Below are positions 1-16,834 of a stretch of 16,983 bases of DNA, piece after piece; within the stretch, counting starts at the first letter, position 1, and the number at the start of each line of letters is the position of its first letter. The notes beneath the pieces were generated by a model, which saw only the letters and a list, made by a program, of their open reading frames with translations, was not told where the DNA came from and did not search any database. A program made the position numbers and the translations under genes. Origin of the DNA: Armatimonadota bacterium (GTDB taxonomy: Bacteria; Armatimonadota; Zipacnadia; Zipacnadales; UBA5352); assembly GCA_034722055.1 (NCBI GenBank), contig JAYENL010000326.1:1-16983 (forward strand), written 5' to 3'.

Positions 1-5
1 TACCA

Positions 6-257
6 TGGAGGGGCCGCCGCGAGCGAAGCGAGCGGGGCGCGGTCAGGAGCGGTAGCAACTGACCGCGCAGGTTCCACCCCGGCCCACTGGAGACCTTCGG
101 TCTCACGGGCTTCCAGCCCGACCATCAGCGCAGGCGCCCCCGCCTGCGCGGGCTTTAGGCCGTGGGCAAAGCTACGTGCCGGGCCGGGGTGGAACCTGAG
201 GCCTGTGAGCGTAGCGAGCAGGCCTCACCGGGCGCTGCGCGCCCGGCGGCCCCTCCA
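6..257. repeat. Inverted doublet of branched REP-like units (REPIN/MITE-like palindromic element)
   Basis: Perfect 14-bp outer inverted repeat TGGAGGGGCCGCCG (6-19 / 244-257) and perfect 18-bp inner inverted repeat CAGGTTCCACCCCGGCCC (68-85 / 181-198). Local hairpins at 17-35, 37-68, 90-104, 106-120, 128-149, 198-226 and 228-246. A related unit recurs at 7922-7998. Confidence 0.75.
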
Positions 258-400
258 CCAGACACCCCCTCATCTCCAGGGCAACCAAGCCCCGAGTGTG
301 TTGGTCGTTAACATACGCTGAATTGTGCAAGTCAGCACTAGCTGCAAGCTCAGAATCGACCAACCGGAGCGATGACCATGCACTCGCAGGCGCCGGGGCC

Positions 401-1405
401 TCACACTAACTGCCCCACGCTCCACAGGCGCTTTCGCTCGCTGACCACCTCGACCGCGTGTCGCCTCTCCTCTTCGCTCAGCCGCCGCGACAGCTCCGGG
501 CGCTCCCACGCCCGCCAGAAGGGCACGTACTGCATCAGCAGCACCAGCTCTGTGTCCGGGAGCGCGTCCTCGAGCATCTCCGCCAGCGGGGCCGTGCAGC
601 AGTCGATGTGCCCCGGCAGGACCAGGTGCCGGAGCGCCACATCCGCCCACCTGCTGGCCTCCCGGAGCGCGGCCATGGCCGGCTGCACGTACTCGGCCAC
701 CCCCGACAGCTCCCGCGCGCAGTCGTCGTTGCCGTAGCGCACGTTGGCGATGAACAGGTCAACGCAGCCGCGGATCAGCTCCAGGCACTGCGGCGCGATG
801 AAGATCGTGCTCTCCCACATCACGGGCAGTGATACGTCCAGGGCCTGCAGGCCCCGCAGGATGGCGTGCACGTGCGGCTCAGGTGTGCCGCCCAGCAGCT
901 TGAGGGTCCTCGCTCCGTCGCGGGCGCCGGCGGCCACGTCCCGCGCGAATCGCTCCGGCTGCAGCAGATCGCCCTCATCCGGGCGCTGGAGCAGGTCGGG
1001 CTTGCGGCAATACAGGCAGCGCATGGTGCAGCCGCCCAGGAAGACGGAGTAGGCCGGCACGAGATCGGGCAGCTCCCCGAGGTGGACCATCTCGGCCGCC
1101 ACGTGCGTCTCCGCCCCCACCGCGCAGAAGCCCCGCTCTCCGGCCAGGCGGTCCACGCCGCAGGCATGGGGGCAGAGTCGGCAGTCGCTCAGGGCTCGGC
1201 GAGACAGCTCGATCTTCACGTCAAGCAGCGACGGGCTGCCGGCCGCATCGGCGCGATGCCCCAGGGCCTGCAGCCCTAGCGAGTGCGCCGCGGCCAGCTC
1301 CTCGTCGGTGGCTGTGTCCAGGTCGGCCAAGGGCACCGGCGTGGTGCGGCAGAGCTCGAAGGCCGGCGGCTCGCGCCCATCGCGGACGCGGATGAAGCGC
1401 CTCAG
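401..1405 (-). CDS. Radical SAM protein, PflX-like (PFL-activating-enzyme-related family); probable CTG start at 1405, ORF track start is GTG 1336
   Basis: N-terminal CRLCPHACGVDR..GERGFC motif, SAM-cluster motif CTMRCLYC (CxxxCxxC), LLGGTPEP, RHLVLPGHIDCC and MQYVP match the PflX family pattern. The frame stays open upstream of 1336 to CTG 1405, which has GGAGG 7 nt before it. Confidence 0.85.
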   Translation of the reverse strand: MRRFIRVRDGREPPAFELCRTTPVPLADLDTATDEELAAAHSLGLQALGHRADAAGSPSLLDVKIELSRRALSDCRLCPHACGVDRLAGERGFCAVGAETHVAAEMVHLGELPDLVPAYSVFLGGCTMRCLYCRKPDLLQRPDEGDLLQPERFARDVAAGARDGARTLKLLGGTPEPHVHAILRGLQALDVSLPVMWESTIFIAPQCLELIRGCVDLFIANVRYGNDDCARELSGVAEYVQPAMAALREASRWADVALRHLVLPGHIDCCTAPLAEMLEDALPDTELVLLMQYVPFWRAWERPELSRRLSEEERRHAVEVVSERKRLWSVGQLV

Positions 1406-3303
1406 GGCTCGCCCTCCCCCTCCTGCTCCTCGTCTTCGTCGTCCTCGATGGGGATGCTCCGGCCGGGCAGGTCCCCGCGGAGGAACTCATCGATGCCAAT
1501 GGCATCCTGGCGCCGATCCTCGTTCTCGGGCTCACCAAGCCCCAGAAGCACGCTGGCACCACGCAAGGCGTCTGCCAAAAAGCCGGTGCCGGAGCTGTCC
1601 GTCGGCGGCCGGGTGTACTGCGACGAGACCGGGCGGTGCGCGCCGCGGTCGAGGCGGAGGCGCACCTCCCGCAATGCCCGCCGCGCCTGGCCGTAGTCGG
1701 GGTCGGCGCGCAGAGCCATCTGCAGGTAGTGCTGGGCGGCCGGCTCATTGTGCTCCCCCAGGTAGCTGGTGGCCACCAGGTAGGCCACGCGGGCGTTGCG
1801 CGGCTCCTCCTCCAGCACCTCCAGCCACAGCTTGCGCGCCTGCCCATAGCGGCGCTGTCCGGCCAGCGCGGCCCCGAGGTGGATTACCGCCGAGCGCCGC
1901 ATCTCCTCGGACGGAGCTGCCTCCAGGACCTTCCGCAGCTCGTAGGCGCCCTCCCGGTCGCGCCCGTCGGCCACCAGCACCCGCCCCAGCTCGTGGCGCA
2001 CCTCCAGGTCGTCGGGCCGGTCCCTGAGCACCCGGCGATAGGCCGCCGCGGCCTCGGCGTACTTGCCATTGATCGCCAGCGCGTCCGCGAGGTCCCGCTG
2101 CACTTCGGCGTCGTCGGGAGCGCGCTGGGCGGCCATGCGGTAGGCCTCCTCGGCCTCCGCGAAGCGCTCCTCGACCAGCAGCCTGTCGCCGTGGCGCTGG
2201 AAGTAGGTCTGGGGCTCGCGGCGCTGCGGGGGGAGCGAGACGACGCGGCCCCGCCTCGTCCGCGGCGTGCCGCAGCGCTGGCAGACTCTCGAGCCCGGCC
2301 GGATCGGCCGCCCGCACTGCTCGCAGAACTGCACACCGCCCTCGGCCCGCCAGCCGCCGCCCGGCGCCCTCTCGGCCTCCTCGGCGACGGCCTCGGGCTT
2401 GGCCGCCTCCTCCACCAGGCTCTCCTCCACGTAGCGCTCGCCCTGAGCGTCCGCCCGCCAGGCCCGCGCCAGAGCCCCCTGCATCTGGCCGGCGCGCTGG
2501 TAGCGCTTACCGGGCTCAGCATCCAGCGCCTTGCGCACCACCGCCACGATGCCCGGCGCCTGCTGAGCGACCGCCTCCAGCAGCTCCTGGGGCGTCCTGC
2601 GCGCCGCCTGGCGCTCCACCTCCAGGAAGGTGAAACGCCCGCCCTGGGGCGGCTCCAGGTCCGGGCGGTCGGGGAGCACGCCGGTGAGCAGCTCGTGGAT
2701 GGTGGCGCCCACCGAGAAGATCTCGGAGGTAATGGCCGGCTCGGCGCCGGCGTGCACCTCCGGCGGGTGGTACTCGTCGGCGATGCTCGCCAGCGTCAGC
2801 CCCGTGCGCAGCCCCAGCAGAAGCTGCATGTGCCCGAAGTCGGTAAGCACGACCTGGCGGAAGCGGCGGTCGTAGTGGACGTTGTCGGGGCGCACGTCAA
2901 GGTGCAGCAGCCCGCGGAGATGGCCGAACTCCAGGGCGCTGAGGATCTGGCAGCCGATGGCCCACGCCTCCTCCACCGGCAGCGTCCCCTCCTGCGCCAA
3001 CACCTGCACCAGTGGCGGAAGCTCCACGTACTCCTCAGCCACGTAGACCCGCGTGCCCAGCCTCAGGACGTCGAGATTCTCGGCGATACCCGTGTGGGAG
3101 ATGCCCGACATCACCCGCGTCAGCCGCTTCAGCGCGGGATCGGTCCTGACGGCGTCGGCCTCCGGCGTCCCATGGCACTCGATCTCCCGGAGCGCCGCCT
3201 GGCGGCCGTCGGGACCCACCGCCAGCCAGGTTCGCCCGTGGCGGCCGGTGCCCAGCAGCCGCCGCACGGTGAAGTCGCCGATGGCGTCAGGTCGCCGGGC
3301 CAT
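1402..3303 (-). CDS. Ser/Thr protein kinase-like domain + double-CxxC zinc ribbon + TPR repeats + acidic tail (633 aa), probable pseudokinase
   Basis: Gly loop GTGRHG, HLDVRPDN, DFG, YHPPE and SEIFSVG. Zn ribbon CEQC...CQRC at about 2268-2328, followed by several TPR-like helical repeats. ATG 3303 overlaps the upstream stop (TGATG), so it is preferred over the 3426 start in the ORF track. Confidence 0.88.
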   Translation of the reverse strand: MARRPDAIGDFTVRRLLGTGRHGRTWLAVGPDGRQAALREIECHGTPEADAVRTDPALKRLTRVMSGISHTGIAENLDVLRLGTRVYVAEEYVELPPLVQVLAQEGTLPVEEAWAIGCQILSALEFGHLRGLLHLDVRPDNVHYDRRFRQVVLTDFGHMQLLLGLRTGLTLASIADEYHPPEVHAGAEPAITSEIFSVGATIHELLTGVLPDRPDLEPPQGGRFTFLEVERQAARRTPQELLEAVAQQAPGIVAVVRKALDAEPGKRYQRAGQMQGALARAWRADAQGERYVEESLVEEAAKPEAVAEEAERAPGGGWRAEGGVQFCEQCGRPIRPGSRVCQRCGTPRTRRGRVVSLPPQRREPQTYFQRHGDRLLVEERFAEAEEAYRMAAQRAPDDAEVQRDLADALAINGKYAEAAAAYRRVLRDRPDDLEVRHELGRVLVADGRDREGAYELRKVLEAAPSEEMRRSAVIHLGAALAGQRRYGQARKLWLEVLEEEPRNARVAYLVATSYLGEHNEPAAQHYLQMALRADPDYGQARRALREVRLRLDRGAHRPVSSQYTRPPTDSSGTGFLADALRGASVLLGLGEPENEDRRQDAIGIDEFLRGDLPGRSIPIEDDEDEEQEGEGEP

Positions 3304-3821
3304 CAGTCCCACCGGCGCACCCGAACGCGCACGCTGTCGTCGGCAAGGACCTCCTCCTCGACCACCTGGTAGCCCAGGGCCTCGGCCTCCTTCTTCACCT
3401 TCAGGTAGGCGTAGCGCTGGCGCCACTTCTCGGCGACCTCGGAGGTATCCACCTGCAGTCGCTGGGCGTCATCGGGACACCATTTGGCCACCACCTGGTA
3501 GATCCCCTCGCTGTCGCGCTTGAGGCCGATGACGTCCCCCGTGCCGGTGCGCACGATGACGTCGGTGCCCTGGAACTGTGCTGTCAGGCCCGCCTCGTCG
3601 ATCATGCTCCGCAGGCCCTCCGCCCGGTCCTCGTCGAGCACCTCGTCGAGGTTCAGCTCCCCGGCGGTCGCCTCCAGCATCATCTCGCGCAGCCGCCTTC
3701 GCTCAGCCGCGCGGTTCGCGGCCGCCACGGCCCCGCCTACCGCGAGGGCCGTGGCGTTCGTCGCAATCACGAAGATCGCCAGGTCCGCCAGCGCCAACCC
3801 GATGGCCACGCCACATGACAT
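3303..3821 (-). CDS. DUF1257/Ycf35-like protein with hydrophobic Ala-rich N-terminal extension
   Basis: The C-terminal half (GDVIGLKRDSEGIYQVVAKW...RQRYAYLKVKKEAEALGYQVVEEEVLADDSVRVRVRRW) matches the DUF1257 pattern. It lies directly downstream of a Ycf46-type ATPase, the usual partner. Purine-rich SD before ATG 3821. Confidence 0.8.
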   Translation of the reverse strand: MSCGVAIGLALADLAIFVIATNATALAVGGAVAAANRAAERRRLREMMLEATAGELNLDEVLDEDRAEGLRSMIDEAGLTAQFQGTDVIVRTGTGDVIGLKRDSEGIYQVVAKWCPDDAQRLQVDTSEVAEKWRQRYAYLKVKKEAEALGYQVVEEEVLADDSVRVRVRRWD

Positions 3822-3844
3822 CTGTCTCTCCCCCTCGCTGCGCT

Positions 3845-5374
3845 TCAGAACTCGAATCTGCGCCGCTCGGCGGTCGTCGCAGCCGCGTGCACGGAGGCCG
3901 GCCGGGCGCGCGTCTCCGCCCAGCTCCGCAGGGCGTCGATGTCCTCCCTGCGAGTGTCCGACAGGGGCACCGTGCTCTCGATGCTGCTCAGCATGTGCTG
4001 GGTGGTCAGCTCTCGCTGCTCGTCGAAGGCATCATAGAGCCCCGAGATGACCACCTGCTCGATCTCCGAGCCCGAGAAGCCCTCCGACGCCTGGGCCAAC
4101 TGAGCGATGTCGAACTTCGACGGGTCGCGGTCGCGCTTCTCAAGGTGGATGCGGAAGATCTCCTCGCGCTCGGACTCTGATGGCAGGTCGATGAAGAATA
4201 TCTCGTCGAAGCGCCCCTTGCGCATCAGCTCGGGCGGCAAGGCGGTGATGTCGTTGGCGGTGGCGATGACGAACACCGGCTCGGTCTTCTCCTGCAGCCA
4301 GGTGATGAAGCTGCCGAAGACGCGGGCGGTGGTGCCGGCATCCGAGAAGCTGGAGCTCTGCGTGCCCGAGAAGCCCTTCTCCAGCTCGTCCAGCCACAGG
4401 ATGCACGGGGCGATGGACTCGGACAGGCGCATGGCCCGGCGCATGTTCTGCTCCGAGGAGCCGACCACGCCCGAGAAGACCGATCCCACGTCCAGCCGCA
4501 GCAGCGGCAGGCGCCACAGGCTGGAGACGGCCTTCGCCGAGAGGCTCTTGCCGCAGCCCTGCACGCCGATGAGCAGGACGCCCTTGGGCTGGGGGAGGCC
4601 GAACTTGCGCGCCGCCTCCGTGAAGGCCTTCCCGCGCTTGCCCAGCCACTGCTTGAGGCTGTCGAGGCCGCCGATGTGCCCGAAGCGCTCCTCCGCGGAG
4701 TAGAACTGCAGGATCCCGGACTTGCGGATGATCTGCTCCTTCTCGGTGAGGACCACCTCGATGTCCTCGGGGCCCAGCCTGGCGTTGAGCACGACGGCCT
4801 TGGCGAAGGCGTCCTCCGCCTCCGACGCGGTGAGCCCCAGGCCGGCCTTCACGAGCTGCTCCCGGCCCTCCTCGTCGAGCTGAATGCGGATGTTGGGGTT
4901 GCCCTCCACCTGCTTGACGATGCCCGCCAGCAGCTTCTGCAGCTCCTCCTGGTCGGGCAGCGGGAAGTCGATGACCGTCACGTCCTTCTCCAAGTGATTG
5001 GGGATCTCCAGCACCGGCGAGACGATGATGAGGGTCTTGTAGCTGGCGCGGAAGGCTCGCGCCACGTCCCGGAGCTTGCGCTCCACGGTGGGATCGTCGA
5101 GGAATGGATCGAAGTCGCGCAGCACGAACAGGGCCGGGTCCTTGTGCTCCATGGCGAAGTCCAGCGCCCGCAGGGGGTCGGTCGTTGAGGGATCGCTCTG
5201 CTTGCCGCCCTCCTGGACCATCCCGCGGGTGATGGTCCAGGTGAACATCTGCTTGTCGCGCTTGCCCGCGATGCTCTTCAGCGCCTTCTCCACCCGCTCC
5301 TCCTCCCACGAGACCACGTAGAGGATGGAGTACCGGGCCCGGATCAGCACATCAATGCGCTGCGAGGCGTCCAC
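3845..5374 (-). CDS. AAA+ ATPase, Ycf46-like (509 aa)
   Basis: Walker A GVQGCGKS, Walker B ILWLDE, VIATAND sensor and [20 protein letters not shown] arginine-finger region. Ycf46-type N-terminal domain ([18 protein letters not shown]...PLRALDF...LFVLRDF). GTG start with GGAG upstream. Confidence 0.95.
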
Positions 5375-5524
5375 TCCAGGTCACGCTCCCGGTCCGCCAA
5401 TGAATGCTTCTGCTAGGACCTTTCCACAGCCGGAGGCCTGCACCTGCTCCACGACTCGGAAGGGACCGGCTCCCCGAGCGCGAAACTGCCCTTGCGCACC
5501 CACATCGCGACGCAGGGGGCCACC

Positions 5525-6244
5525 ATGGTTACCGTCTTCAACACCTGGAAAGAGATCGCCGACGAGCAGCCGGAGATCGCCATCCTCCCGGTCGGCTCGC
5601 TGGAGCAGCACGGCCACCATCTGCCCATCGCCACCGACTGGATCCGCGCCGATGACATGGGCCGGCGCATGGCCGAGCGCCTGGGCGACTGCTACCTGCT
5701 GCCCGCTATCGCCTACGGCAACTCCCAGGAGCACATGGACCTGCCGGGCACCATCACCCTCCGGCCCTCCACGCTGGCGCTGGTGATCGAGGACATCGTG
5801 CTGTCGCTGCGCCACCATGGCATCCGCAAGATCGTCATCCTCTCCTGCCATGGCGGCAACTGGATCCTCAAGCCCACCATCCGCCACCTCAACTTCCGCT
5901 ACGATGACCTGCGCATCATCCACGCCGACGGCCCACTGCTGTCCGAGCGAGAGCGCATGCCCCGGGAGACGCACGCCGGGGCCGGCGAGACCGGCCAGAT
6001 GCTGGCGCTGCGCCCGGAGCTGGTGAAGGGCCGGTCGCCGGACTTCTCGCCGGACGTGGGCCAGGAGTGGAACGACTACGTGGGCTACGGGACGAGCACC
6101 GAGACCGGGACGTGGGGCCGGCCCTCACAGGCGGACCCGGAGGCGTCGGAGGAGAGCATGGAGAGCGCGGTCGAGCACCGGGTGGCGTACATCCGTGAGA
6201 CCTTCGACCGCCTGGACGAGATGACAGGGCCGCTGGATGAGTGA
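5525..6244 (+). CDS. Creatininase / creatinine amidohydrolase family protein
   Basis: ILPVGSLEQHGHHLPIATD, GNSQEHMDLPGTITL, SCHGGN and HAGAGET motifs. ATG 5525 follows AGGGGG and is preferred over TTG 5492. Confidence 0.92.
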   Translation: MVTVFNTWKEIADEQPEIAILPVGSLEQHGHHLPIATDWIRADDMGRRMAERLGDCYLLPAIAYGNSQEHMDLPGTITLRPSTLALVIEDIVLSLRHHGIRKIVILSCHGGNWILKPTIRHLNFRYDDLRIIHADGPLLSERERMPRETHAGAGETGQMLALRPELVKGRSPDFSPDVGQEWNDYVGYGTSTETGTWGRPSQADPEASEESMESAVEHRVAYIRETFDRLDEMTGPLDE

Positions 6245-6315
6245 GTTGGGCTCTGTACTGGCCTATAGACACCAGTTGCGCAAGGGGCGTTTGCCCTGGG
6301 AGAGGCCGCCTGACG

Positions 6316-6332
6316 GCGCTCCGCAGGAGCGC
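6316..6332. other. Short GC hairpin between convergent genes
   Basis: GCGCTCC-GCA-GGAGCGC: 7-bp stem, GNA triloop, no U-tract. Confidence 0.3.
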
Positions 6333-6362
6333 ACGAAGTCGGCCCCCGGGCTGCTCAGGGTG

Positions 6363-6593
6363 CTACAGATACCCCAGCGACCGCAGGCGGGCCTTGACGC
6401 GCTCCAGCTCCTCCTCGGAGTACTCCTCCCCCTCGGCCAGGGCGTGGGTAGAGGCCAGGTCGCGGAGCACGTAGACCACGAACTCCGTCACCGAGTTGTA
6501 GCCCGCGCCGTCGATGATCTGCCCGATGCGCTCGTAGAGCGGGCGCGGGATCTTGATGGTCACCTTGTCTCCGCCGCGCGACTTCCTCGCCAT
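6363..6593 (-). CDS. Small CopG-like ribbon-helix-helix protein (76 aa)
   Basis: VTIKIPRPLYERI...GYNSVTEFVVYVLR strand-helix-helix pattern and C-terminal EEELERVKARLRSLGYL. SD GAGGAG 7 nt upstream of the ATG. Confidence 0.85.
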   Translation of the reverse strand: MARKSRGGDKVTIKIPRPLYERIGQIIDGAGYNSVTEFVVYVLRDLASTHALAEGEEYSEEELERVKARLRSLGYL

Positions 6594-6864
6594 TGGTTAA
6601 CTCCTCGACCGGCGCTGAGCGGAAGATCACCTGCGTCCGCACTCATCGTGGTCTTTCGCCGTGGGGCGGCGGGTTCCCTGCCCGGCATACCGTCCCCGCA
6701 TGTCCCGGTGAGCACCTTAACCCGAAGAAGAATTCTCTACAGGCGGAGGAAACTATTGTCCGATGCCGAAATACCCGCACGCGAATAGGGAGGCCACCCG
6801 GAGATTGCGCCGGGCGTCTTGCCTCTACAACTGTACCAAGCTCACCCCAGGAGGTGTCTGGAGT

Positions 6865-7536
6865 ATGCGCAAGGGCTTCACGCTCATCGAGCTGTTGGTC
6901 GTGATCGCGATCATCGCGATCCTGGCCGCAATCCTCTTCCCGGTCTTCGCCAGGGCACGGGAGAAGGCCAAGCAGGCGAGCTGTCTGAGCAACATGAAGC
7001 AACTTGTCCTCGGAGCGCACATGTACGTGACCGACTACGACGACTGCCTCTTCGGGCATCTTGCGGGAACACGACACCCGCAGACGCCAGACGAGCCGGA
7101 ATGGCCATGGGACTCCCCCTACTATAACTGGCAACAGCAGGTCTACCCGTATGTCAAGAACGAGCAGCTCTACGTCTGCCCCTCCCTCCCCACCTACGAC
7201 TGGCACTACAACGGCCGGGATAACACCCTGGGGTACGGCATGAACTACTGGGTGACCTACTTCTACAACTACCTCAACCTCTCCGACTTCGAGAGGCCGG
7301 CGGAAACCATCTGGTTCACGGACTGCAAGTACTACGTGGTCTACCCCACCTACTACCTGTGGAGGTACCCGGACCACTACGCGTACGGCAAGGACGGCTT
7401 CGCGCGTCTGGACATTCGCCATAACAATGGCGCCAATGTCGGGTTCATCGACGGCCATGCCAAGTGGATGAACCGCCAGACGCTTGAGGGCGATCACGGG
7501 CTCTATGGCGACTCCCAGTTCTGGTACGGACGTTAA
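6865..7536 (+). CDS. Prepilin-type N-terminal cleavage/methylation protein with H-X9-DG motif (DUF1559-like, 223 aa)
   Basis: [48 protein letters not shown]-terminus, YVCPS, GYGMN and [26 protein letters not shown] at 6849-6855. Confidence 0.93.
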
Positions 7537-7602
7537 TGGCGCCTGACGCCCAGGTGTGTATGTAGCTCAGAGCTGCCGTTCGTGGAACGCGAGGCGAGGA
7601 CG

Positions 7603-7629
7603 GGGGCGGTCGATTATGGCCGCCCCTAT
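7603..7629 (-). repeat. GTAG-type REP-like palindrome (ATAG variant)
   Basis: Minus strand reads ATAGGGGCGGCC-ATAATC-GACCGCCCC. Confidence 0.45.
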
Positions 7630-7743
7630 CGCCGTACGCGGGCACCGCGCCAGATCCGTGGACCAGAAGGCTCCCGAACCTCTCCCTCAACTCTCGAACC
7701 CCCGCCATTCGCGCAGGTCGGCCTGCGCCTGACAGCGTGCCTG

Positions 7744-7769
7744 GGGCGCGGCACAGGTCCGCGCCCTAC
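7744..7769 (-). repeat. GTAG-type REP palindrome
   Basis: Minus strand reads GTAGGGCGCGG-ACCTGTG-CCGCGCCC, the classic tetranucleotide-plus-hairpin layout. Confidence 0.65.
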
Positions 7770-7803
7770 AGCAAACGCCGCCCACTGTGCCGTTGCCGTA
7801 TGG

Positions 7804-8072
7804 CTAACGCATTGCCCACATCTTGGGCGCTGGCGGAAGGCCCATGGGCGCCCTGCGCGGGAAAGCCGTTTGCAGTTCCATCCCGGCCCATGTCGTTGCT
7901 CACGCCGAACGGCAAACGGGCGGGCCGGGATGGAACCTGCCGCCTGCGCGAAACGACGGCGCAGGCGGCACCCTCGCTGCGCTCGGGCGGCCCCTCCGTA
8001 CGACACCAACACAGGCCTGAGCCCGTGCTCAACTCCATCGCAGGCCTCCCGCAAGATGTGGGTAATGCAGAG
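7804..8072. mobile_element. Putative non-autonomous MITE-like insertion
   Basis: 17-bp inverted repeat with one mismatch (GCATTGCCCACATCTTG 7809-7825 / CAAGATGTGGGTAATGC 8052-8068), flanked by the 9-bp direct repeat GCCGTATGG (7795-7803 and 8073-8081). No credible ORF inside. Confidence 0.45.
7832..7998. repeat. Second doublet of branched REP-like units (left unit degenerate)
   Basis: Perfect 15-bp inverted repeat GTTCCATCCCGGCCC (7875-7889 / 7922-7936). The minus-strand unit 7998-7922 has the same head, two hairpins and tail as the units at 6-85 and 181-257. Confidence 0.7.
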
Positions 8073-8190
8073 GCCGTATGGAGGGGCCGGACCACTGTCC
8101 GGCCCGCCGTTTCTCCTGTGCGCGCCGTTGGTCTCAAGGTCCGCATGAACGGCCTAAGGGCAGGGCGGGAATCCCGCCCCTCCGTACGGC
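8073..8190. repeat. Inverted doublet of simple GGAG-headed REP-like hairpins
   Basis: GCCGTATGGAG-GGGCCGGAC-CACT-GTCCGGCCC on plus (8073-8105) and GCCGTACGGAG-GGGCGGG-ATT-CCCGCCC on minus (8190-8163). The ends form a 15-bp inverted repeat with one mismatch. Confidence 0.65.
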
Positions 8191-8258
8191 ATGACTGGGG
8201 CGTCTGGTAGGGCGCCCTGCACGCTGCGCTCCCCCGGTACTGCGCCAGGTTGCCGCCG

Positions 8259-10298
8259 TCATCCCCCGAGGTTGAGGTAGTAGCGGAATGAGATGACGGG
8301 ATCGATGAAGTAGTTGATGAAGATACGCCACACGATGCCGCCGACCAGGACATGCCCGAAGAACAGCCCCAGGAAGGCCGGCACCACCCTCCGGTAGGCC
8401 GGCAGGCTGCCGTAACGGAGCGTCAGCCGCTGGGCGATCCAGGCGCCCAGGAACGGGCCCCAGTAGGGCGACCAGTCGTTGTAGAGGGTGCCCATGATGA
8501 TGCCCAGTGGGTGGAAGGGGAAGTTGGAGACAACCATGCGGGCGTAGGTGACGATAGCCGTCAGGCCGAAGCCGGCCCCGTAGAAGCCGATCCGGGTCCA
8601 GTCGGGCCCCTGGGGGTTCGCCAGCGCCTGATCCAGGAGCCGGTAGTTGCCCCGCGACCAGTTCAGCGCCCACGACCGCCCTGCGCGCCCGGTCTTGGCG
8701 CCGATCAGCCCCTGGCCGTACTTGTAGCCCACGTCGAGGTGGTACCAGAAGGTCAGCCCCAGAGCCACCAGGCAGGCGGCCAGCATCAGCCACGCGAAGC
8801 TGCCCCGCCTGGAGCGCACGTACTCGGGGAGCTTGAGGCCGTCGGTAAAGGCCTGGCCGGCGCTGTGGGCCAGGACCGTGCGGCCGATCCAGAACAGGGC
8901 GTAGTAGAGGACCATGGACTGCGGAGAGCCTACGCCGCGCAGCCAGCGATTGCCCAGGAGATGTATCGGCACTATGGTGTCGAAGCCGTAGGGATGGGTC
9001 CAGAGAACCGGGGGGCCGGCCTCGGCGCGAATCCGCGCCGCCACCAGCACGAACATCCAGAGGCTTATGAAGTAGGCCAGCAGGGGGCCGAAGCGGATGC
9101 CGGCGTAGCTGAGCATCCACATCAGCGCGACGGTGCCGCCGATGAAGCCCACGGTCTGCGTGCGGTAGGACATCGGCTCGGTCCGGTCATACTCCTGCGG
9201 GCCGGACAGGATGCTGCGCCACACCTGCCTCAGATGCGGCCGGCCGGCCCACAGCATGAAGGCCGTGAAGGCGATGCAGCTTCCCGCGCTCACCTCCTGG
9301 TAGAACGGGAAGCCGGCACCCCGATAGCCGAAGCTGCGACCGGTGATCTTGACCAGCTTCATGAAGAAGTAGCTGCCGAAGGCCGTCAGCAGCACCTCGC
9401 CCGACATCAGGTAGGCCAGCCCCCACACCTCCAGCGCCAGCGAGAAGTTCATGGGGCGCAGGTAGCGCAGCGGCCCCTCGGTGATGCCCGACGCCACGCG
9501 CATGTACTTCTGGATCTGAGGGAAGGCGGGGTAGAAGGCGTGGGTGATGTTGATGATGTTGAATAGTGCCGCCACGCCGAAGCCCGCCCACATGACGGGG
9601 TCGGTGAAGAAGGACTTGACCGGCGAGGAGCCCGAGAAGCCCCCGGTGATCTCCAGCGGCAGGAACAGCATCGGATACGTCAGCCGCTCATTCTCGCTCC
9701 ACTGCTTGCGGAAGATGGCGACCAGGCAGAGAACGGTGAAGGTCAGCACCAGGCAGAACAGCGTCCACCAGCCCAGGGGCCCCCACCATACGTCCCAGGG
9801 CACGCGTCCGGTGGCGGTGCCCTCGAAGAAGCCCTCCACGACCCAGGTGTCGTGGGGGATGTAGAAGTCAGGGTAATACTGGAACAGCTCCCGGTAGCCG
9901 TCCACGTCCGTGCCGTAGTACTTGGGGAACATGAGGTAGTGGAGGATATAGCCGGCGCGCTCCATTGCCAGCGACGCCGCCAGGGCCGCATACACCAGCA
10001 GCAGCTCCCCGCGAGAGAACGGCGCCAGCAGTCGGGGCATCCGACCGGAGCGCCACAGCGCCCACAGCCCGGCATTGAGGCCCATCAGGATCAGCAGGAA
10101 CAGGATGGCCGGTGCGGGAGGGACAATGTAGGGCACCCAGCAGATGCGCACGTAGCCCAGGCGAGTGATGCCGATGTAGGTGGCGAAGGTCAGGACCACC
10201 GTCAGCAGCACCGCCCGCACGGTGAGGGCCCCGATGTCGGCGGGAGCGGTGAGCTGATCGTCGGCCCGCTGCGAAGCGCTTTGTATCACATGGCTCAT
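8259..10298 (-). CDS. Large polytopic membrane protein, DUF6785/DUF6784-like putative transporter (679 aa)
   Basis: Many hydrophobic segments plus RKQWSENERLTYPMLFLP, RIRAEAG, FPFHPLG and LRYGSLPAYRRVVPAFLGLFFG motifs. ATG 10298 follows GGAG and is preferred over 10421, which would overlap the divergent region. Confidence 0.82.
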   Translation of the reverse strand: MSHVIQSASQRADDQLTAPADIGALTVRAVLLTVVLTFATYIGITRLGYVRICWVPYIVPPAPAILFLLILMGLNAGLWALWRSGRMPRLLAPFSRGELLLVYAALAASLAMERAGYILHYLMFPKYYGTDVDGYRELFQYYPDFYIPHDTWVVEGFFEGTATGRVPWDVWWGPLGWWTLFCLVLTFTVLCLVAIFRKQWSENERLTYPMLFLPLEITGGFSGSSPVKSFFTDPVMWAGFGVAALFNIINITHAFYPAFPQIQKYMRVASGITEGPLRYLRPMNFSLALEVWGLAYLMSGEVLLTAFGSYFFMKLVKITGRSFGYRGAGFPFYQEVSAGSCIAFTAFMLWAGRPHLRQVWRSILSGPQEYDRTEPMSYRTQTVGFIGGTVALMWMLSYAGIRFGPLLAYFISLWMFVLVAARIRAEAGPPVLWTHPYGFDTIVPIHLLGNRWLRGVGSPQSMVLYYALFWIGRTVLAHSAGQAFTDGLKLPEYVRSRRGSFAWLMLAACLVALGLTFWYHLDVGYKYGQGLIGAKTGRAGRSWALNWSRGNYRLLDQALANPQGPDWTRIGFYGAGFGLTAIVTYARMVVSNFPFHPLGIIMGTLYNDWSPYWGPFLGAWIAQRLTLRYGSLPAYRRVVPAFLGLFFGHVLVGGIVWRIFINYFIDPVISFRYYLNLGG

Positions 10299-10441
10299 GT
10301 GTGGTGCTCCGAGAGAATCGAGAGCTGGACATGCCCTCAGCGCATTCGCCTGATAGCCGAAGATTCCCTGCCCGAGTGTGAACCTGGGCAGCCCGGGCGC
10401 CGTCCATGTCTTCAGAACCACTTAACGAGGAGGCGGTACCG

Positions 10442-11305
10442 GTGGTGAGCCGAAAGCGTGTGGTCCCCATCACCATCACGTTTGTCCTGGCCGTGACGGT
10501 GGCGCTGGTGCTGGCCGCGCCTGAGGGCGCCGAGCAGGCCGATCCCCAGCCGAATGCGCGGGCGGCGGCCTTCTTCGACAGGCACGACGCGAACGGTGAC
10601 GGCAAGATCGAGCGCGACGAGTTCCAGGGGGCCGAGAACGCCTTCCTTCGCATGGATGCCAATGGGGACGGAACCATCACGCCAGACGAGTTGCAGGCCG
10701 GGCGGCGGCAGGGCGCCCAGCGCGCCATGCGCGATCCTCAGCAGATGTGGCAGCGGATGCTCCAGCGCTTCGACGCCAACAATGACGGGGTGCTGGGGAA
10801 GGACGAATTCGGTGGCCCGGAAAGAATCTTCAGCGCTCTTGACAGGAATGCCGATGGTGTGGTAACCTCCGCGGAGGCTGGACGGATAGGAGGGCGCATC
10901 GGCGACCGTCCCGCTCAGCAGAGAGGTCCGGCCGACGCCCGCGCTCGTTGGCAAGTGATGCTCCAGCGCTTCGATGCGGATGGCGACGGGCAGCTTTCTC
11001 AGGAGGAATGGCCCGGGCGCCCGGAGGTCTTCCAGCGGATGGACCCGGACGGAGACGGAGTCATCACTGAGCAGGACGTGGAGGCCCTCCGCGGCGCACG
11101 CCAGCAGCGCGCGAACCCGGCCCTGACCCTGATCCGCATGATGGACGAGAACGGTGACGGGCAGGTTTCGGCGGACGAATGGCAGAAGTACTTTGACACG
11201 ACGGACGTTAATGATGATAATATGGTCAGCATGGCTGAGCTGGTCGAGCAGATGAAGAAGGTCCTTCGGCCGCCAGCGGCGAATGCTGAACCGGACAACG
11301 AGTAG
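10442..11305 (+). CDS. Secreted EF-hand calcium-binding repeat protein (8 EF-hand loops)
   Basis: Basic-then-hydrophobic signal peptide. Loops DANGDGKIERDE, DANGDGTITPDE, DANNDGVLGKDE, DRNADGVVTSAE, DADGDGQLSQEE, DPDGDGVITEQD, DENGDGQVSADE and DVNDDNMVSMAE. SD GAGGAGG at 10427-10433; GTG 10445 is an alternative start. Confidence 0.92.
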   Translation: MVSRKRVVPITITFVLAVTVALVLAAPEGAEQADPQPNARAAAFFDRHDANGDGKIERDEFQGAENAFLRMDANGDGTITPDELQAGRRQGAQRAMRDPQQMWQRMLQRFDANNDGVLGKDEFGGPERIFSALDRNADGVVTSAEAGRIGGRIGDRPAQQRGPADARARWQVMLQRFDADGDGQLSQEEWPGRPEVFQRMDPDGDGVITEQDVEALRGARQQRANPALTLIRMMDENGDGQVSADEWQKYFDTTDVNDDNMVSMAELVEQMKKVLRPPAANAEPDNE

Positions 11306-11320
11306 TTGACGCACGAGCTT

Positions 11321-11380
11321 TCCGTCGCAAGACGGAGCATCTGCGGCCCCAGGTCTCCCCCCGCCTGGGGCCGCGGTGCT
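11321..11380. terminator. Tandem hairpins downstream of the EF-hand gene, possible terminator or stabiliser
   Basis: TCCGTC-GCAA-GACGGA (11321-11336) and an 11-bp stem GCGGCCCCAGG/CCTGGGGCCGC (11343-11374), extendable to 11336-11380. No strong U-tract. Confidence 0.4.
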
Positions 11381-11383
11381 TAA

Positions 11384-11512
11384 CAGATGGTGGAGCCGGT
11401 GAAGAGAGGGTGCGAATCCCAAGTGTCGGTGGAACGCGCGGGCGAGGCCGCCCGCGCCCCAGTTATCTGTGTTGCGGGCGAAGCAGCGTTCCCCTCGCAC
11501 GCAGGCCATCTG
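11384..11512. ncRNA. Candidate rod-shaped structured ncRNA (6S-like topology, unassigned)
   Basis: Nested, roughly symmetric stems: CAGATGG/CCATCTG, GAGGG/CCCTC, CCC/GGG and a 9-bp apical GCGCGGGCG/CGCCCGCGC. Located in a 308-nt gap between convergent genes. Confidence 0.3.
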
Positions 11513-11613
11513 GGGCTACCGGCTGTAGGGTAGCGTGCATCCGTTGCAGTTGACGTTCAGGCGGGTGTGCACGTCGAAGACCGAGTCGCCGGCGATGTCG
11601 TTGATGCCCGGCA

Positions 11614-12366
11614 CTACAGCCCCAGCAGCGCGGCCGCGTTGTGCCACAGGACCCTCTCGCGGTCCTCGGTCGAGAGCCTGGCGCCCATGACGCGCCCGAC
11701 CTGCGGCGCGTAGTCCCGGCCGGGATAGTCGGAGCCGTAGACGACGCGCTCCGCTCCCAGATGCCGCACGGCGTACTCCACCATCTCGGTGTCGTACCAG
11801 CCCCCGCAGGTGTCCACTGAGACATTGGGCAGGTCCTCTACGTCCTGCACTCCGCGCCGGCCGACGCCCGTCAGGTGCGCCATGATAAAGCGCGTGTCGG
11901 GATGGCGCCGGGCGAGGTGCGCGATGTCGGAGCCGTCCGACTCCTCCGGATACTTCTCGACCATCTTGTACCAGGCATGGAAGAGCACAGGGATCCCCAG
12001 CTCCACCGCCGCCTCGGCGATGGGATCGATGCGGGCGTCGCGGGCGTTGACCTCGATGCCCTGCTTGATGGCCACCATGCCCGCGGCCGCGCAGCGGCGC
12101 GCCTCCTCCCGGATGAACTCCGGCGGGTGGTTCGGGCTGAGGTACATCGCGCCGGAGTAGAAGTCCGGGGCCTCCTCCACCAGGCGCAGCGTGCAGTCAT
12201 TCCGCCGCTGCAGCTCCTCGGTGGATGTCCCCTTCCCCCCGGTCAGGGCGAGGATCCGCTCGATGCCGCTCTGCCCGGCGAGGGACTTCAGCCGCTCCAG
12301 GCGGTAACCGGGCCGGTCATTCGGGTCCGTCCATGGATGATGCACGTGGATGTCGATGGCGGTCAT
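11614..12366 (-). CDS. Amidohydrolase_2 family metal-dependent hydrolase (250 aa)
   Basis: IDIHVH (HxH), VAIK, PVLFHAW, FIMAHLTG, NVSVDTCG and ERVVYGSDYP motifs. Confidence 0.93.
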   Translation of the reverse strand: MTAIDIHVHHPWTDPNDRPGYRLERLKSLAGQSGIERILALTGGKGTSTEELQRRNDCTLRLVEEAPDFYSGAMYLSPNHPPEFIREEARRCAAAGMVAIKQGIEVNARDARIDPIAEAAVELGIPVLFHAWYKMVEKYPEESDGSDIAHLARRHPDTRFIMAHLTGVGRRGVQDVEDLPNVSVDTCGGWYDTEMVEYAVRHLGAERVVYGSDYPGRDYAPQVGRVMGARLSTEDRERVLWHNAAALLGL

Positions 12367-13172
12367 GGCGCCACCCCCAGCAGTGTGCTGGCATTGGCCG
12401 CCGAGACGGCGGCCTTCACGTCATCGTCCGCCTCCGAGTTCGCGATCTTGAGCACGTTCGAGCGAGGATAGAACAGCGGCGCATGGGTGCCGAAGAGCAG
12501 CCGATCCGCCCGGAAGAGCTTCAGGGCCGTCACCAGCGAGGACTCGTACTCGAAGAAGCTCAGCTCGATCCACAGGTTCTCGGGGAGCGCCGCCATCTCC
12601 GACGGCCGCTCGGGGGAGTTGAGCCTGGCCATAAGGTCATCGGGCACGAAGTCCGACAGCTCCCGGAGCCTCGACAGGCCGAACACGATGACCTGAAGCT
12701 CCGGATAACGCTGGGCCATGGCCGCCACGTCGGCGAAGGGCACGCCCGGAACCATGGCGACGGGGTTGTGCATGCGCTCGTCCTCGGCGCGCAGGTGAAC
12801 GCCCACCGCCACACCATCCTCCGCCGCCCGCTCCGCCAGGTCGCTCGCGGCGTCCAGGTCATACGCATGGTAGCCGGGCATCAGCCGCACCAGCGGAACC
12901 TGCCACTGTTGCCGGCAGAGGTCGTAGGCCTTCGGCCACCCGGCCAGCGTCGGGTTGATTACCGCAGAGGGCACGAAGAAGTCCGACGCCGCCAACTCGG
13001 GGAGGCGCAGCTCGTTCGCCTCGTGCGGATCGGGCCAGAACCAGGCCTCCAGCGGGTAGGCGCAGGCGCCGGTGACACCCTCCTCCCGGAGCATCGCCTC
13101 CAGGGACGCGGGATCGGCGGGCGGCGTGGGGCGCATGGCCCACGTCCCGCAGCCCACCGTCATGTCAAACAT
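12363..13172 (-). CDS. Divergent amidohydrolase-fold protein lacking the HxH motif (269 aa)
   Basis: MFDMTVGCGTW, AVINPTLAGW, VRLMPGYHAY, LRAEDER, NLWIELS and DRLLFGTHAPLFYP. ATGA overlap with the next gene and GGAGGAG upstream of ATG 13172. The 14441 start in the ORF track is a shadow extension. Confidence 0.85.
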   Translation of the reverse strand: MFDMTVGCGTWAMRPTPPADPASLEAMLREEGVTGACAYPLEAWFWPDPHEANELRLPELAASDFFVPSAVINPTLAGWPKAYDLCRQQWQVPLVRLMPGYHAYDLDAASDLAERAAEDGVAVGVHLRAEDERMHNPVAMVPGVPFADVAAMAQRYPELQVIVFGLSRLRELSDFVPDDLMARLNSPERPSEMAALPENLWIELSFFEYESSLVTALKLFRADRLLFGTHAPLFYPRSNVLKIANSEADDDVKAAVSAANASTLLGVAP

Positions 13173-13361
13173 GGTTGCAGGTCTCCTCCCTTTCCTCGGT
13201 CTACCAGCTCCCGGTGCCCTTCTTCCCGGCACGGCTGTCTCCTTCAGGCCGGACAGGATCTGACCACGAGGCCCAATGGCTCCTAGCCGCGCGCAGGAGC
13301 CGCCCGGCTCTGCGGAGAAGCTTTCTCCTGCCCTGATAGCGACACCATGGAGGTGCGGCCC

Positions 13362-15887
13362 ATGGCTTCTCGCCTGTCCGTCGCTCTGGCTGCGGTGCTG
13401 TTCTGCGTCGCGGCCCCGGCCGAACCCATCCTGCTCGTCGAGGATGGCGAGCCCTCTGCGGTCATCGTCACCGGCCCGGAGCCGTCGGAGACAGTGGCGC
13501 TGGCGGCAGAGGAGATCGCGCTCTACCTGCAGCGGATGTCCGGTGCGCGCGTGCCCGTTCAGGCCGTGCCCCTTCCCGATCAGGCGGCCGTGCTCATAGG
13601 CGTGGAGGCGGTAGAGCAGTTCGCTGGCGGCGCCGGCCTGCCGGAGCTGGGCCCGGAGGGGCGGCTGCTGCGCACAGTCGATGACCGCCATCTGATCGTC
13701 GCAGGGCAGACCGACATGGGGACGCTCAACGGCGCCTATGACCTGCTGCACCTGCTGGGGGTGCGGTGGTTCATGCCCGGAGAGGCCGGTGAGCATGTGC
13801 CGCGGGCGGGCACGGTGACGGTGCCCGAGATCGACGAGGCCTTCCAGCCCACCATGGGCTACCGCCGCATCTGGTCGGCGGCTCACCGCCTGCGCGAGCG
13901 GCAGACCCAGGAGTATCAGGCGTGGCAGCGGCGGAGCCACATGCCGGGGCACTTCAACGGCAGCATGGGACACGCGTACCACAACATCTGCGACCCGCGC
14001 GACCGGGGGCCATTCGAGGAGCACCCGGAGTACTTCTCGCTCATCGACGGCCGCCGGGTCCAGCGCAGCCAGATCTGCACCACCAACCCCGAGGTGCGAG
14101 CGAGGGCCGTCGAGTACGCTCTGGACTACTTCGCGGCTCACCCCGATGCCGTCATGGTCTCGCTGTCGCCCAACGACGGCTACAACTGGTGCGAGTGCGC
14201 CCGGTGCCAGGCCGAGGGCAGCATGTCCGACAATGCCCTCATGCTCGCCAACCACGTTGCCGACGCGCTTGCCGAGCAGATGCCGGGCAAACATGTGGCG
14301 ATGTACGCCTACGCCCCCACCTCTCCCCCACCGAGCATTCAGGCCCGCGAGAACGTGGTCATCTGGATCGCCACGGCCTTCATCCGCGGGGGCATGAGCC
14401 TCCCGGAGCTGATCGAGGGCTGGTCCGCGAAGTGCCATCACATCGGCATCCGCACCTACTACTCCGTGACCCCCTGGTCATGGGAGATGCCGCAGTACGA
14501 TCCGCAGCGGCTGGCGGACGATCTGCGCTTCTATCACATGAACAAGGCCATCGGCATCAGCGCGGAGTCCGAGGACAACTTCGGCTCTCGCGGAGCGCGC
14601 TACTGGCTGGCCTCACAGCTCATGTACGACCTCGACCGGCCGCTGGACGAGCTGCTGGCGGACTACTACGATGGCTGCTGGGGCGCCGCGGCGCCGGCCA
14701 TGCGACAGTACTGGGCGCGCTGGGAGGGCGGGCAGCCGGTGACGGCCGAGCGGCTGGCGATGGCGCTGCGGGACCTCCAGCGCGCCGACGAGCTGGCTCA
14801 GACCGAGGAGGTGCGCCGGCGGGTCATCCTAATGAAGGCCTACCTGCACTACCTGCGGTTGTTCCGCGAGTACGGGACCGCGTCGGGCGAGGAGAAGACC
14901 GAGGCGCTGGGGCGGTGCCTCAGCTACGGCTACGCCATCATGCCCCTCCACATGATCCACATCCCGAATGTCTTCTACCGCATCGTGGGCAAGCCGGGCA
15001 GCCGCAAGCTCGACATCCCGGAGGAGACGCTGGCCCAGTGGACCTCTACGGAGCCCATGGACCCCTTCGACCCGCGGACGGCCGCCCGCATCGAGGCCGA
15101 CTTCCAGCAGGACCTGCAGGACTACCAGCCTCTGGACGTGGTGCGCGCCGAGTACTCCGAGGACCTCGTGCCGCTGGCGGCCGCGGGTGAGGGCCCGGCG
15201 GGCGCCCCGGCGTGGCGCGGTGCCAACCGGGCCTACGTGATCGCGCCGGAGGATGGCCTCGTGCGGCTGGGCGCGGTCACCGGGCTGATACGCGAGGGGC
15301 CCTGCGTGCTGGCGCTGGAGGAGCTGGATGGAGGCGACATCACGCAGGTCGAGCTGCCGCCCGGCCTCACGCGCGAGATCGCCGTGGACACCGGCCGCGA
15401 GGAGCCGGACGAGCTGCGCATGGCGGGCGACGAGCGCGGCATCACGCTCGACGCCGGCCGCCCCGGCCTGGTGCGCCTGCGCGTGGAGCCGCAGCAGGGC
15501 TCCGCGGTGCGGCTGGACTTCGGCCTCCAGCCTCACGCCTTTGTGGCCAGCGAGGAGCATCCGGCCAGCTTCATCAGCGGCACGCAGGGTCACGTGTCCT
15601 TCTACGTGCCCGCCGACACCGAGCGCTTTGCCGTCAGCGTCCGCACACCCGACCACCACGGTCGCCTCCGCATCTTCCGTGCGGATGGGGAGATGGTCCT
15701 GGAGGAGGCCGGCGACTACACGCTGGGCGAGGCCTTCGCCGTTGACGTGCCCGAAGGCCAGGATGCCGCAGCATGGTCGCTGAGCGTGGACAAGTGTGAG
15801 GACTGCGACCTGGCGCTGATCGGGGTGCCGGCGCTCGTCTCGCAGCGATCGTCAGCGCTCCTGGTACCGGGCGAGGTGGCGCCATAG
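13362..15887 (+). CDS. Secreted DUF4838-like protein with GH67-like N-terminal domain (841 aa), putative carbohydrate-active protein
   Basis: Signal peptide, AAEEIALYLQRMSGA, GTLNGAYDLL..LGVRWF, EEHPEYFSLIDGRR, QICTTNPEV, SLSPNDGYNWCECARC and MYAY..T..PP. SD GGAGGT before ATG 13362. Confidence 0.85.
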   Translation: MASRLSVALAAVLFCVAAPAEPILLVEDGEPSAVIVTGPEPSETVALAAEEIALYLQRMSGARVPVQAVPLPDQAAVLIGVEAVEQFAGGAGLPELGPEGRLLRTVDDRHLIVAGQTDMGTLNGAYDLLHLLGVRWFMPGEAGEHVPRAGTVTVPEIDEAFQPTMGYRRIWSAAHRLRERQTQEYQAWQRRSHMPGHFNGSMGHAYHNICDPRDRGPFEEHPEYFSLIDGRRVQRSQICTTNPEVRARAVEYALDYFAAHPDAVMVSLSPNDGYNWCECARCQAEGSMSDNALMLANHVADALAEQMPGKHVAMYAYAPTSPPPSIQARENVVIWIATAFIRGGMSLPELIEGWSAKCHHIGIRTYYSVTPWSWEMPQYDPQRLADDLRFYHMNKAIGISAESEDNFGSRGARYWLASQLMYDLDRPLDELLADYYDGCWGAAAPAMRQYWARWEGGQPVTAERLAMALRDLQRADELAQTEEVRRRVILMKAYLHYLRLFREYGTASGEEKTEALGRCLSYGYAIMPLHMIHIPNVFYRIVGKPGSRKLDIPEETLAQWTSTEPMDPFDPRTAARIEADFQQDLQDYQPLDVVRAEYSEDLVPLAAAGEGPAGAPAWRGANRAYVIAPEDGLVRLGAVTGLIREGPCVLALEELDGGDITQVELPPGLTREIAVDTGREEPDELRMAGDERGITLDAGRPGLVRLRVEPQQGSAVRLDFGLQPHAFVASEEHPASFISGTQGHVSFYVPADTERFAVSVRTPDHHGRLRIFRADGEMVLEEAGDYTLGEAFAVDVPEGQDAAAWSLSVDKCEDCDLALIGVPALVSQRSSALLVPGEVAP

Positions 15888-15938
15888 TAGCACAACGAAC
15901 ACCCTATCATATCATGAGCAGCACACTCGCCGGACGGC

Positions 15939-15960
15939 GTGCGGACGAGGGCGTCCGCAC
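15939..15960. terminator. Hairpin between convergent genes
   Basis: GTGCGGACG-AGGG-CGTCCGCAC, a 9-bp perfect stem with no U-tract. Confidence 0.35.
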
Positions 15961-15976
15961 CACGGCATGACGGTCC

Positions 15977-16699: not shown

Positions 16700-16834
16700 G
16701 GTAGACCCTCCCGCACCAACGCTGACAGCCGCGGGGCATTTCCCCGCGGCTGTCGCGCTTCCCTCGTGCGTCGTCAAGATTGTTCGACCCAGCTTAAGCT
16801 GCTCCCGGAGGAGGGCCGCGTGCCGCCGGCGGCT

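Follow-up and report, generated by a model that had tools for sequence, protein, structure and literature searches.

A putative Ycf46-type AAA+ ATPase and a PflX-like radical SAM enzyme belong to a six-gene unit split over two loci in an Armatimonadota bacterium

Introduction

Ycf46 and Ycf35 are products of stress-induced cyanobacterial and plastid genes that have been known for decades and for which a mechanism is lacking; induction of the cyanobacterial ycf46 by iron, oxidative and other stress has been described (PMC7496141, PMC13683863). What proteins of this kind might do in other company is the question raised by a contig from an Armatimonadota bacterium (GenBank assembly GCA_034722055.1, contig JAYENL010000326.1). 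Within the whole 16,983-nt stretch analysed, here called the window, four co-directional genes on the minus strand encode a putative Ycf46-type AAA+ ATPase, a DUF1257 (Ycf35-like) protein, a protein that joins a kinase-like domain, a zinc ribbon and tetratricopeptide repeats (TPR), and a radical S-adenosylmethionine (SAM) enzyme that we call PflX-like (COG1313). An earlier note on this DNA, made from the sequence alone, had read the four genes as one candidate machine for remodelling or modifying a protein. Here we ask whether they form a conserved unit, whether that unit is complete, and how it might work.

Results

The four genes are one conserved unit. Among 67 genomes sampled from the order, the long form of DUF1257 (threshold E<1e-70) was found in ten and a short form in three more; the cassette-type pseudokinase and the cassette-type radical SAM enzyme were found in the same ten genomes and in none of the other 57, nine of the radical SAM copies being near full length and one cut by a contig end. 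Seven of these genomes carry the four genes on a single contig in the order seen in the window, and in the other three the arrangement is interrupted only by contig ends. Two families and eight genera are represented; the neighbours of the cassette on the chromosome are the same in different genera, and the guanine-plus-cytosine (GC) content of the operon matches that of the genome. A chance or recently mobile cluster was rejected on this conservation of order, neighbours and GC. The single unit proposed in the earlier note is thus borne out by the neighbourhood check, which did not find its genes unlinked in these relatives.

The layout of the operon is also as that note described it, with a 23-nt gap between the ATPase and DUF1257 genes, a TGATG overlap between the DUF1257 and pseudokinase genes, and a CTGA overlap in which the radical SAM start overlaps the pseudokinase stop. 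Hidden Markov model annotation confirmed the domains (Pfam matches above cut-off to AAA, DUF1257, Pkinase with several TPR models, and Radical_SAM), and third-position GC in the four reading frames is 0.91-0.95. The TGATG overlap is kept in all eight loci of the window's own family (f1) and replaced by a spacer in the second family (f6). A 4-nt NTGA overlap was present in 10/10 loci read, with CTG as the start codon in five, GTG in three and ATG in two; because relatives keep this overlap with any of the three codons, the CTG start of the radical SAM gene in the window has their support. The stop/start overlaps suggest that the genes are translationally coupled. No sigma-70-like promoter or convincing terminator was recognised in positions 1-7000 of the window.

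The unit does not end with these genes. It had been noted that no DUF2997-like open reading frame (ORF) was present, which is true of the window, where we found none, but not of the genome, in which a DUF2997 gene lies on another contig (C284:39239-39436; 66.5 bits against a cut-off of 24.1). This gene overlaps by 47 nt a 66-residue ORF, here named X (C284:39390-39590), in a geometry that is the same in eight of eight f1 genomes, with the ATG of X at the same place in each. Across the order, DUF2997 occurs in 12 of the 67 genomes, namely the ten cassette genomes and two whose DUF1257 loci are of the short form, and all ten cassette genomes possess the DUF2997-X pair. The pair occupies a separate locus in f1 (eight genomes); in f6 (two genomes) DUF2997 and X follow directly after the radical SAM gene to give six contiguous genes. 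The unit consists of six genes, split over two loci in the family of the window genome. The four-gene composition first described therefore fails, and a four-gene system without DUF2997 was rejected, since DUF2997 and X are encoded in trans; the expectation that a Ycf46-type module usually travels with DUF1257 and DUF2997 holds, the former being adjacent here and the latter adjacent in the two f6 relatives. We regard it as probable that the six genes form one functional system.

X gave no Pfam match. It corresponds to the C-terminal tail of radical SAM proteins from other Armatimonadota (hhalign probability 95.5, E=1.4e-8), a tail that the radical SAM enzyme of the window does not have, and it is found as a fused tail in some lineages and as a free gene beside the ATPase or DUF2997 in others. 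A few radical SAM proteins in the databases have X-like segments at the N-terminus, which scored only E=0.005-0.09 and were not counted. In the window's own genome the DUF2997-X pair (C284:39239-39590; L088:1489-1840) is divergent from a universal-stress-protein gene. No motif common to the upstream regions of the two split loci was found in the 10 + 8 sequences compared.

To place the operon within the phylum, 401 Armatimonadota genomes were scanned, with eight candidates scored per genome, so that the 40 genomes with DUF1257-like hits may leave some DUF1257 genes uncounted. Twenty of the DUF1257 hit regions were examined, together with 20 more that were picked for a radical SAM match or for one of the other DUF1257 matches. 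Outside the order, this revealed 24 loci with a long-form cluster whose gene order is circularly permuted. The 24 loci hold the ATPase (23), DUF2997 (23), a TPR protein (22), a zinc-ribbon/membrane/S26-like protein (22), PilT (21), X or an X-like tail (21) and, next to the ATPase, a cassette-clade radical SAM gene (18), several of the missing genes being accounted for by contig ends. PilT passes the TIGR01420 cut-off in both copies tested, and the S26-like signal peptidase appears to be without its catalytic Ser and Lys. In three loci of one genus (L036, L104, L105) a short ORF similar to the PilT N-terminal domain lies between the TPR and DUF2997 genes.

The wider cluster and the six-gene unit of the window's genome share the ATPase with its tail, the long DUF1257, DUF2997, the radical SAM clade marked by a GHxxCC motif and X or the tail, and also a TPR part, a zinc ribbon, a dead enzyme fold and an RFxxLE motif. 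They differ in PilT and the S26-like protein, which are absent from all ten own-order cassettes as far as the contigs reach; the window's own genome has three PilT-family genes elsewhere and only weak S26 matches. The window operon is a derived version of this wider seven-gene system, in which the pseudokinase-zinc-ribbon-TPR protein fills the slot of the TPR protein.

The radical SAM enzyme carries a CxxxCxxC motif and shows a partial TIM barrel in its model, which together place it in the radical SAM superfamily; related proteins bear the database name 'putative pyruvate formate lyase activating enzyme'. A FastTree phylogeny of 106 sequences (nine own-order, 16 wider-cluster, seven unlinked and 24 stand-alone proteins, with 50 of 113 database hits picked by rule) was used to compare it with stand-alone PflX, as had been suggested, and separated the cassette enzymes from the 24 stand-alone copies as a clade with support of 1.0 and a stem of 0.6. 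The GHxxCC motif is found in 9/9 own-order and 15/16 wider-cluster enzymes and in none of the 24 stand-alone copies. A stand-alone paralogue is present in most genomes of the order, cassette-bearing ones included, and the copy in the window's own genome is 28% identical. A genome-wide scan with the own-order enzyme returned eight loci, all titled Armatimonadota. In L039, L106 and L115 the cassette-type gene is split over two frames, through either a frameshift or an assembly error.

In the predicted structure (predicted local distance difference test score, pLDDT, 92) the closest solved fold is that of pyruvate formate-lyase activating enzyme, with Z 19.8 and a root-mean-square deviation of 2.9 over 227 residues, followed by QueE, NifB and viperin at Z 14.6-16.2 (QueE being next best at 16.2). 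The best sequence match in the PDB is a glycyl-radical enzyme activase (E=3e-8), and all NCBIfam activase models score far below cut-off (28 against 232 for TIGR02493). A radical SAM gene of a different, NrdG-like family lies beside the module in three of four plasmid loci read, out of 80 plasmid records with an ATPase match, and in two of ten short-form loci; in the part of the other eight that was read, no radical SAM gene appeared. The NrdG-like gene also adjoins the ATPase in one long-form locus without a PflX-like gene, where it is cut by a contig end. Two plasmid loci carry a helix-hairpin-helix protein beside the DUF2997 and NrdG-like genes.

The ATPase is probably of Ycf46 type, an assignment drawn from its neighbours and length and not from direct comparison with slr0374. 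Its Walker A, Walker B, sensor 1 and arginine-finger motifs are all intact. Among proteins of solved structure, those closest in sequence to the AAA domain are of Cdc48/p97 type (E=7e-52). A motif at the C-terminal tail, R-[RKQ]-[IFL]-E-hydrophobic, is present in 25/25 cluster ATPases and in none of six partnerless orthologues. The latter are found in six f1 genomes, five of one genus and one of another, in which an orthologous ATPase sits at the same chromosomal site with no partners near (L207-L212) and is truncated ahead of the tail; the next gene is that for the aminotransferase, which in other genomes comes after the radical SAM gene. As the tail is absent from all six, its loss accompanied that of the partners, through one or two events, a pattern suggesting that the tail binds one of them.

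Full-length homologues of the ATPase were found on 57 phage and 80 plasmid records, for example in a mycobacteriophage (L202) and on plasmids (L204, L206). In two loci, L033 (3951-6854) and L113, the cluster ATPase is broken directly after Walker A, and the L033 insert is an intein with a LAGLIDADG domain. A short-form DUF1257/DUF2997 locus (L047:2033-9269) holds three ATPases of the family, one of them fused behind a kinase domain.

The DUF1257 protein matches PF06868 at 40.3 bits against a cut-off of 22.2. A hydrophobic N-terminal segment was identified in 31 of 32 long-form sequences (19-residue maximum of at least 1.97), and this helix is likely to be a membrane anchor, in agreement with the membrane association suggested for it earlier. 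Long-form proteins begin with MSC, MST or MSV in place of MSH, the N-terminal motif reported for Ycf35 (PMC13060386). The model (pLDDT 70.5) gave no match at E<=0.001 in the PDB or BFVD, and for a TusA/SirA-like fold split between DUF1257 and DUF2997 the DUF1257 model alone reached a best Z of 3.4.

The third protein had been called a pseudokinase, and this is upheld. In the window protein Arg replaces the beta-3 Lys, which is retained in one of eight cassette copies; the catalytic Asp occurs in four and the DFG motif in three, both being present in the window's protein. No copy (0/8) keeps all three, and a control kinase of the same genome does; an active Hanks-type Ser/Thr kinase was rejected on this ground. 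The four Cys of the zinc ribbon are invariant in 9/9 sequences, and its Zn_Ribbon_1 match is just below threshold (E=4e-5; 23.7 against a cut-off of 25). Its similarity to the ribbon of the S26-like protein is weak (hhalign 40%), so common descent of the two is not claimed.

A short linear motif, RFxx[LM][ED]-hydrophobic, is inserted in the kinase-like domain of nine out of nine pseudokinases and stands at the start of 20 of the 22 wider-cluster TPR proteins and of two of three NHL-type proteins beside the module; in the window's own genome the pattern occurs 24 times in 1.63 million residues. Its recurrence in three unrelated folds beside the same module points to a docking tag. The NHL-type propeller proteins with the motif or a close variant at their start, encoded next to the module or to its ATPase, lie at L030:2116-3075, L213:4098-5048 and L214:4456-5409. 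An unlinked paralogue of the pseudokinase-zinc-ribbon-TPR protein (C10:20264-21967 in the window's own genome; L028:7253-8971) is present in 18/18 f1 genomes searched and in no other family, and adjoins a small divergent zinc-ribbon-TPR gene. Elsewhere, seven Ser/Thr kinase-like genes lie within 17 kb (G014:C6:34821-51857).

The coordinates of the operon features are collected in Table 1. Upstream of the ATPase gene are a divergent creatininase-family gene (5492-6244, plus strand) and a gene for a 76-residue protein with the look of a ribbon-helix-helix regulator and no Pfam match (6363-6593, minus strand); several relatives have both genes at this side of the ATPase as well. The rest of the window (6844-16876) holds unrelated neighbours: a prepilin-type N-methylation protein, a DUF6785/DUF6784 membrane protein, an EF-hand protein, two amidohydrolases, a DUF4838 protein and a 299-residue protein without Pfam match (15977-16876).

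Table 1. Genes and motifs of the operon, in positions of the window
Feature	Position	Strand	Remarks
AAA+ ATPase, putative Ycf46-type, 509 aa, GTG start	3845..5374	(-)	Non-catalytic N-terminal half and one intact AAA domain
Pore loop 1, GVVG, non-aromatic	4460..4471	(-)	ATPase; aligned to the Trp-Tyr loop of Cdc48 D2
C-terminal tail motif R-[RKQ]-[IFL]-E-hydrophobic, candidate docking site	3848..3862	(-)	ATPase
Long-form DUF1257 (Ycf35-like) protein, 172 aa	3303..3821	(-)	Pfam PF06868
Hydrophobic N-terminal segment, likely membrane anchor	3759..3815	(-)	DUF1257 protein; Kyte-Doolittle 19-residue maximum 2.24
Pseudokinase-zinc-ribbon-TPR protein, 633 aa	1402..3303	(-)	Pfam Pkinase and several TPR models
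RFxxLE-type linear motif, residues 223-229	2617..2637	(-)	Inserted in pseudokinase domain
Zinc ribbon, two CxxC pairs	2263..2328	(-)	Pfam Zn_Ribbon_1 (just below cut-off)
TPR repeats	1672..2193	(-)	
PflX-like radical SAM enzyme, GHxxCC clade, 334 aa, CTG start	401..1405	(-)	Pfam Radical_SAM
CxxxCxxC cluster-binding motif	1007..1030	(-)	Radical SAM enzyme
GHxxCC motif marking the clade	596..613	(-)	Radical SAM enzyme

Discussion

The mechanism that we favour is put forward tentatively, as possible rather than probable when taken whole: a single membrane-anchored, ATP-driven machine in which the radical SAM enzyme modifies a protein target. The long DUF1257 would be held in the membrane through its N-terminal helix and, paired with DUF2997, form a platform, and the ATPase would dock on these partners through its C-terminal tail. 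The pseudokinase-zinc-ribbon-TPR protein would plug in via RFxxLE, as the TPR protein may do in the wider system, and select the target, while X, which in other lineages is part of the radical SAM protein itself, would tether that enzyme to the core. ATP hydrolysis might then drive assembly and release rather than full unfolding, and the enzyme, whose nearest solved fold is that of a radical SAM enzyme activating a protein, would abstract a hydrogen from a residue of the target. Stress as the trigger would be an analogy from the cyanobacterial ycf46 operon only, and the contacts suggested among the six proteins are all inferred.

Several observations weigh against this mechanism, or against so close a bond between the six genes. 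The radical SAM clade includes proteins named from Bathyarchaeota and Methanocella, and none of the 80 archaeal-type metagenome loci read (35 of them of at least 8 kb) contains the ATPase, DUF1257 or DUF2997; the enzyme can therefore work without the module. These 80 are the best of 581 loci, all near the archaeal-type first sequence, and serve as a control that is not informative on other bacterial phyla. The cassette-clade enzyme is missing from six of the 24 wider loci, lying elsewhere in two of those genomes; in five incomplete genomes (67-84% complete) the radical SAM gene is present and no DUF1257 was found; no cassette-type radical SAM gene was found in three cluster-bearing genomes and one short locus; and L030 has X, DUF2997 and DUF1257, with only a stand-alone-type radical SAM gene found in its genome. 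The radical SAM gene is not obligatory to the module. The partnerless orthologues show in turn that the ATPase has a use without the partners, perhaps in company with the unlinked paralogue of the pseudokinase. None of the 27 aligned ATPases has an aromatic residue in pore loop 1, where Gly, Ser or Asp is followed by Val, Leu or Ile, and because the aromatic loop is absent, unfolding or remodelling by classical threading is doubtful. One of the nine RFxxLE pseudokinases is the unlinked paralogue, and as the pattern was defined after seeing these proteins, its background rate flatters the motif. Finally, ten genomes from two families and six partnerless ATPases from two genera amount to few independent events.

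Among other explanations, the ATPase, DUF1257 and DUF2997 could form a unit that chaperones or repairs iron-sulfur proteins, with the radical SAM enzyme as client, X as loading tag and the DUF2997 cysteine handling the cluster. Such a unit would need no threading loop, and the partner of the module is an iron-sulfur protein three times over: PflX-like here, NrdG-like on plasmids, and Fed7 in cyanobacteria, where DUF2997 and ycf35 cluster with fed7, a [4Fe-4S] ferredoxin gene (PMC4284462). It also accords with Cys27 of DUF2997, invariant in 16/16 sequences, with the hairpin that X and DUF2997 have in common (hhalign 85%), and with the cyanobacterial slr0373-slr0374-slr0376 stress operon, which reacts to a shortage of iron and to oxidative stress (PMC7496141). 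It would, however, leave the membrane anchor, the dead kinase and peptidase scaffolds and PilT unexplained; the 80 stand-alone metagenome relatives of the enzyme clade go without the module, and eight of the ten short-form loci showed no radical SAM gene as far as they were read. We take this account as the main rival of the favoured mechanism and consider it unlikely.

Alternatively, the ATPase and the motif-bearing scaffolds might form a signalling or assembly switch, co-regulated with a radical SAM enzyme that makes a small-molecule, lipid or RNA product without the two being one machine. The archaeal relatives of the enzyme presumably make such products, the next structural matches after the activase are QueE, NifB and viperin, the ATPase survives without the enzyme, several genomes have the enzyme away from the cluster or on its own, and its clade stands alone in the archaeal-type loci. 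Against this stand a 4-nt overlap kept in every locus read, even with a CTG start, the alternation of X between fused tail and free gene beside the ATPase or DUF2997, and the recruitment of a second radical SAM family to the same module; we find this explanation unlikely as well.

The role in conflict raised in the earlier note, taken here to mean an anti-phage or inter-cell system whose pseudokinase-TPR protein would sense an invader protein with the ATPase and radical enzyme as effectors, has in its favour the patchy presence (10/67 genomes), the phage and plasmid homologues of the ATPase and a weak similarity of the radical SAM clade to viperin models, but is improbable given generic PADLOC matches only (AAA, kinase), the same chromosomal neighbours across genera, a GC content matching the genome and no defence or mobility genes recognised by Pfam scan among the window proteins.

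The tentative mechanism of a membrane-anchored modifying machine can be extended further. Ycf46-type ATPases might be the hub of a plug-in system for post-translational modification, with DUF1257/DUF2997 as platform and ATP used without threading, in which a radical SAM writer would have been recruited twice from different families and held by an X-hairpin tether, and in which TPR, pseudokinase-zinc-ribbon-TPR and NHL selectors would be exchanged via RFxxLE. Taken jointly, these proposals are speculative and unlikely to hold in full; if true, they would supply a function for Ycf46, Ycf35 and PflX at once. The variant described here is itself a natural dissection: the parts kept are the ATPase, long DUF1257, DUF2997, X and a radical SAM enzyme, and those exchanged are TPR, dead peptidase and PilT for one pseudokinase. 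It yields three candidate docking elements (the tail of the ATPase, RFxxLE and the hairpin of X) that are short and can be mutated, and so lend themselves to specific binding experiments.

Comparison with known systems

In its intact catalytic motifs the ATPase resembles the Cdc48/p97 segregases, from which it differs in having one active AAA domain and no aromatic pore loop (TIGR01243 score of 106 against 803). The radical SAM enzyme is likewise closest to glycyl-radical enzyme activases (PFL-AE, the pyruvate formate-lyase activating enzyme, and NrdG) in solved fold and best PDB sequence match; it differs from them in its low identity (16%), in an extra N-terminal Cys cluster and in GHxxCC, and the mapped loci showed no glycyl-radical enzyme. 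The matches from PADLOC were limited to generic ones to AAA (IetA) and kinase (PD-T4-6, Mad6) profiles; the remaining four proteins had none. In the literature searched we found no description of the cluster, which neighbourhood tables in supplements could hold, and among the titles listed no paper on PflX-like enzymes.

Close to the system as a whole are the cyanobacterial and plastid Ycf46/Ycf35/DUF2997 genes, with which the present system shares an AAA+ ATPase of about 500 residues, DUF1257, DUF2997 and an iron-sulfur protein as neighbour; a Pseudanabaena plasmid encodes an ATPase homologue 46% identical over 96%, next to DUF1257 and DUF2997. Here, in contrast, DUF1257 is of greater length, bears a hydrophobic helix and begins with MSC instead of MSH, the PflX-like enzyme, X and the pseudokinase are added, and the genes are divided between two loci in a non-photosynthetic host. 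The cluster is an undescribed variant of an uncharacterised module, and is larger than the earlier note had it.

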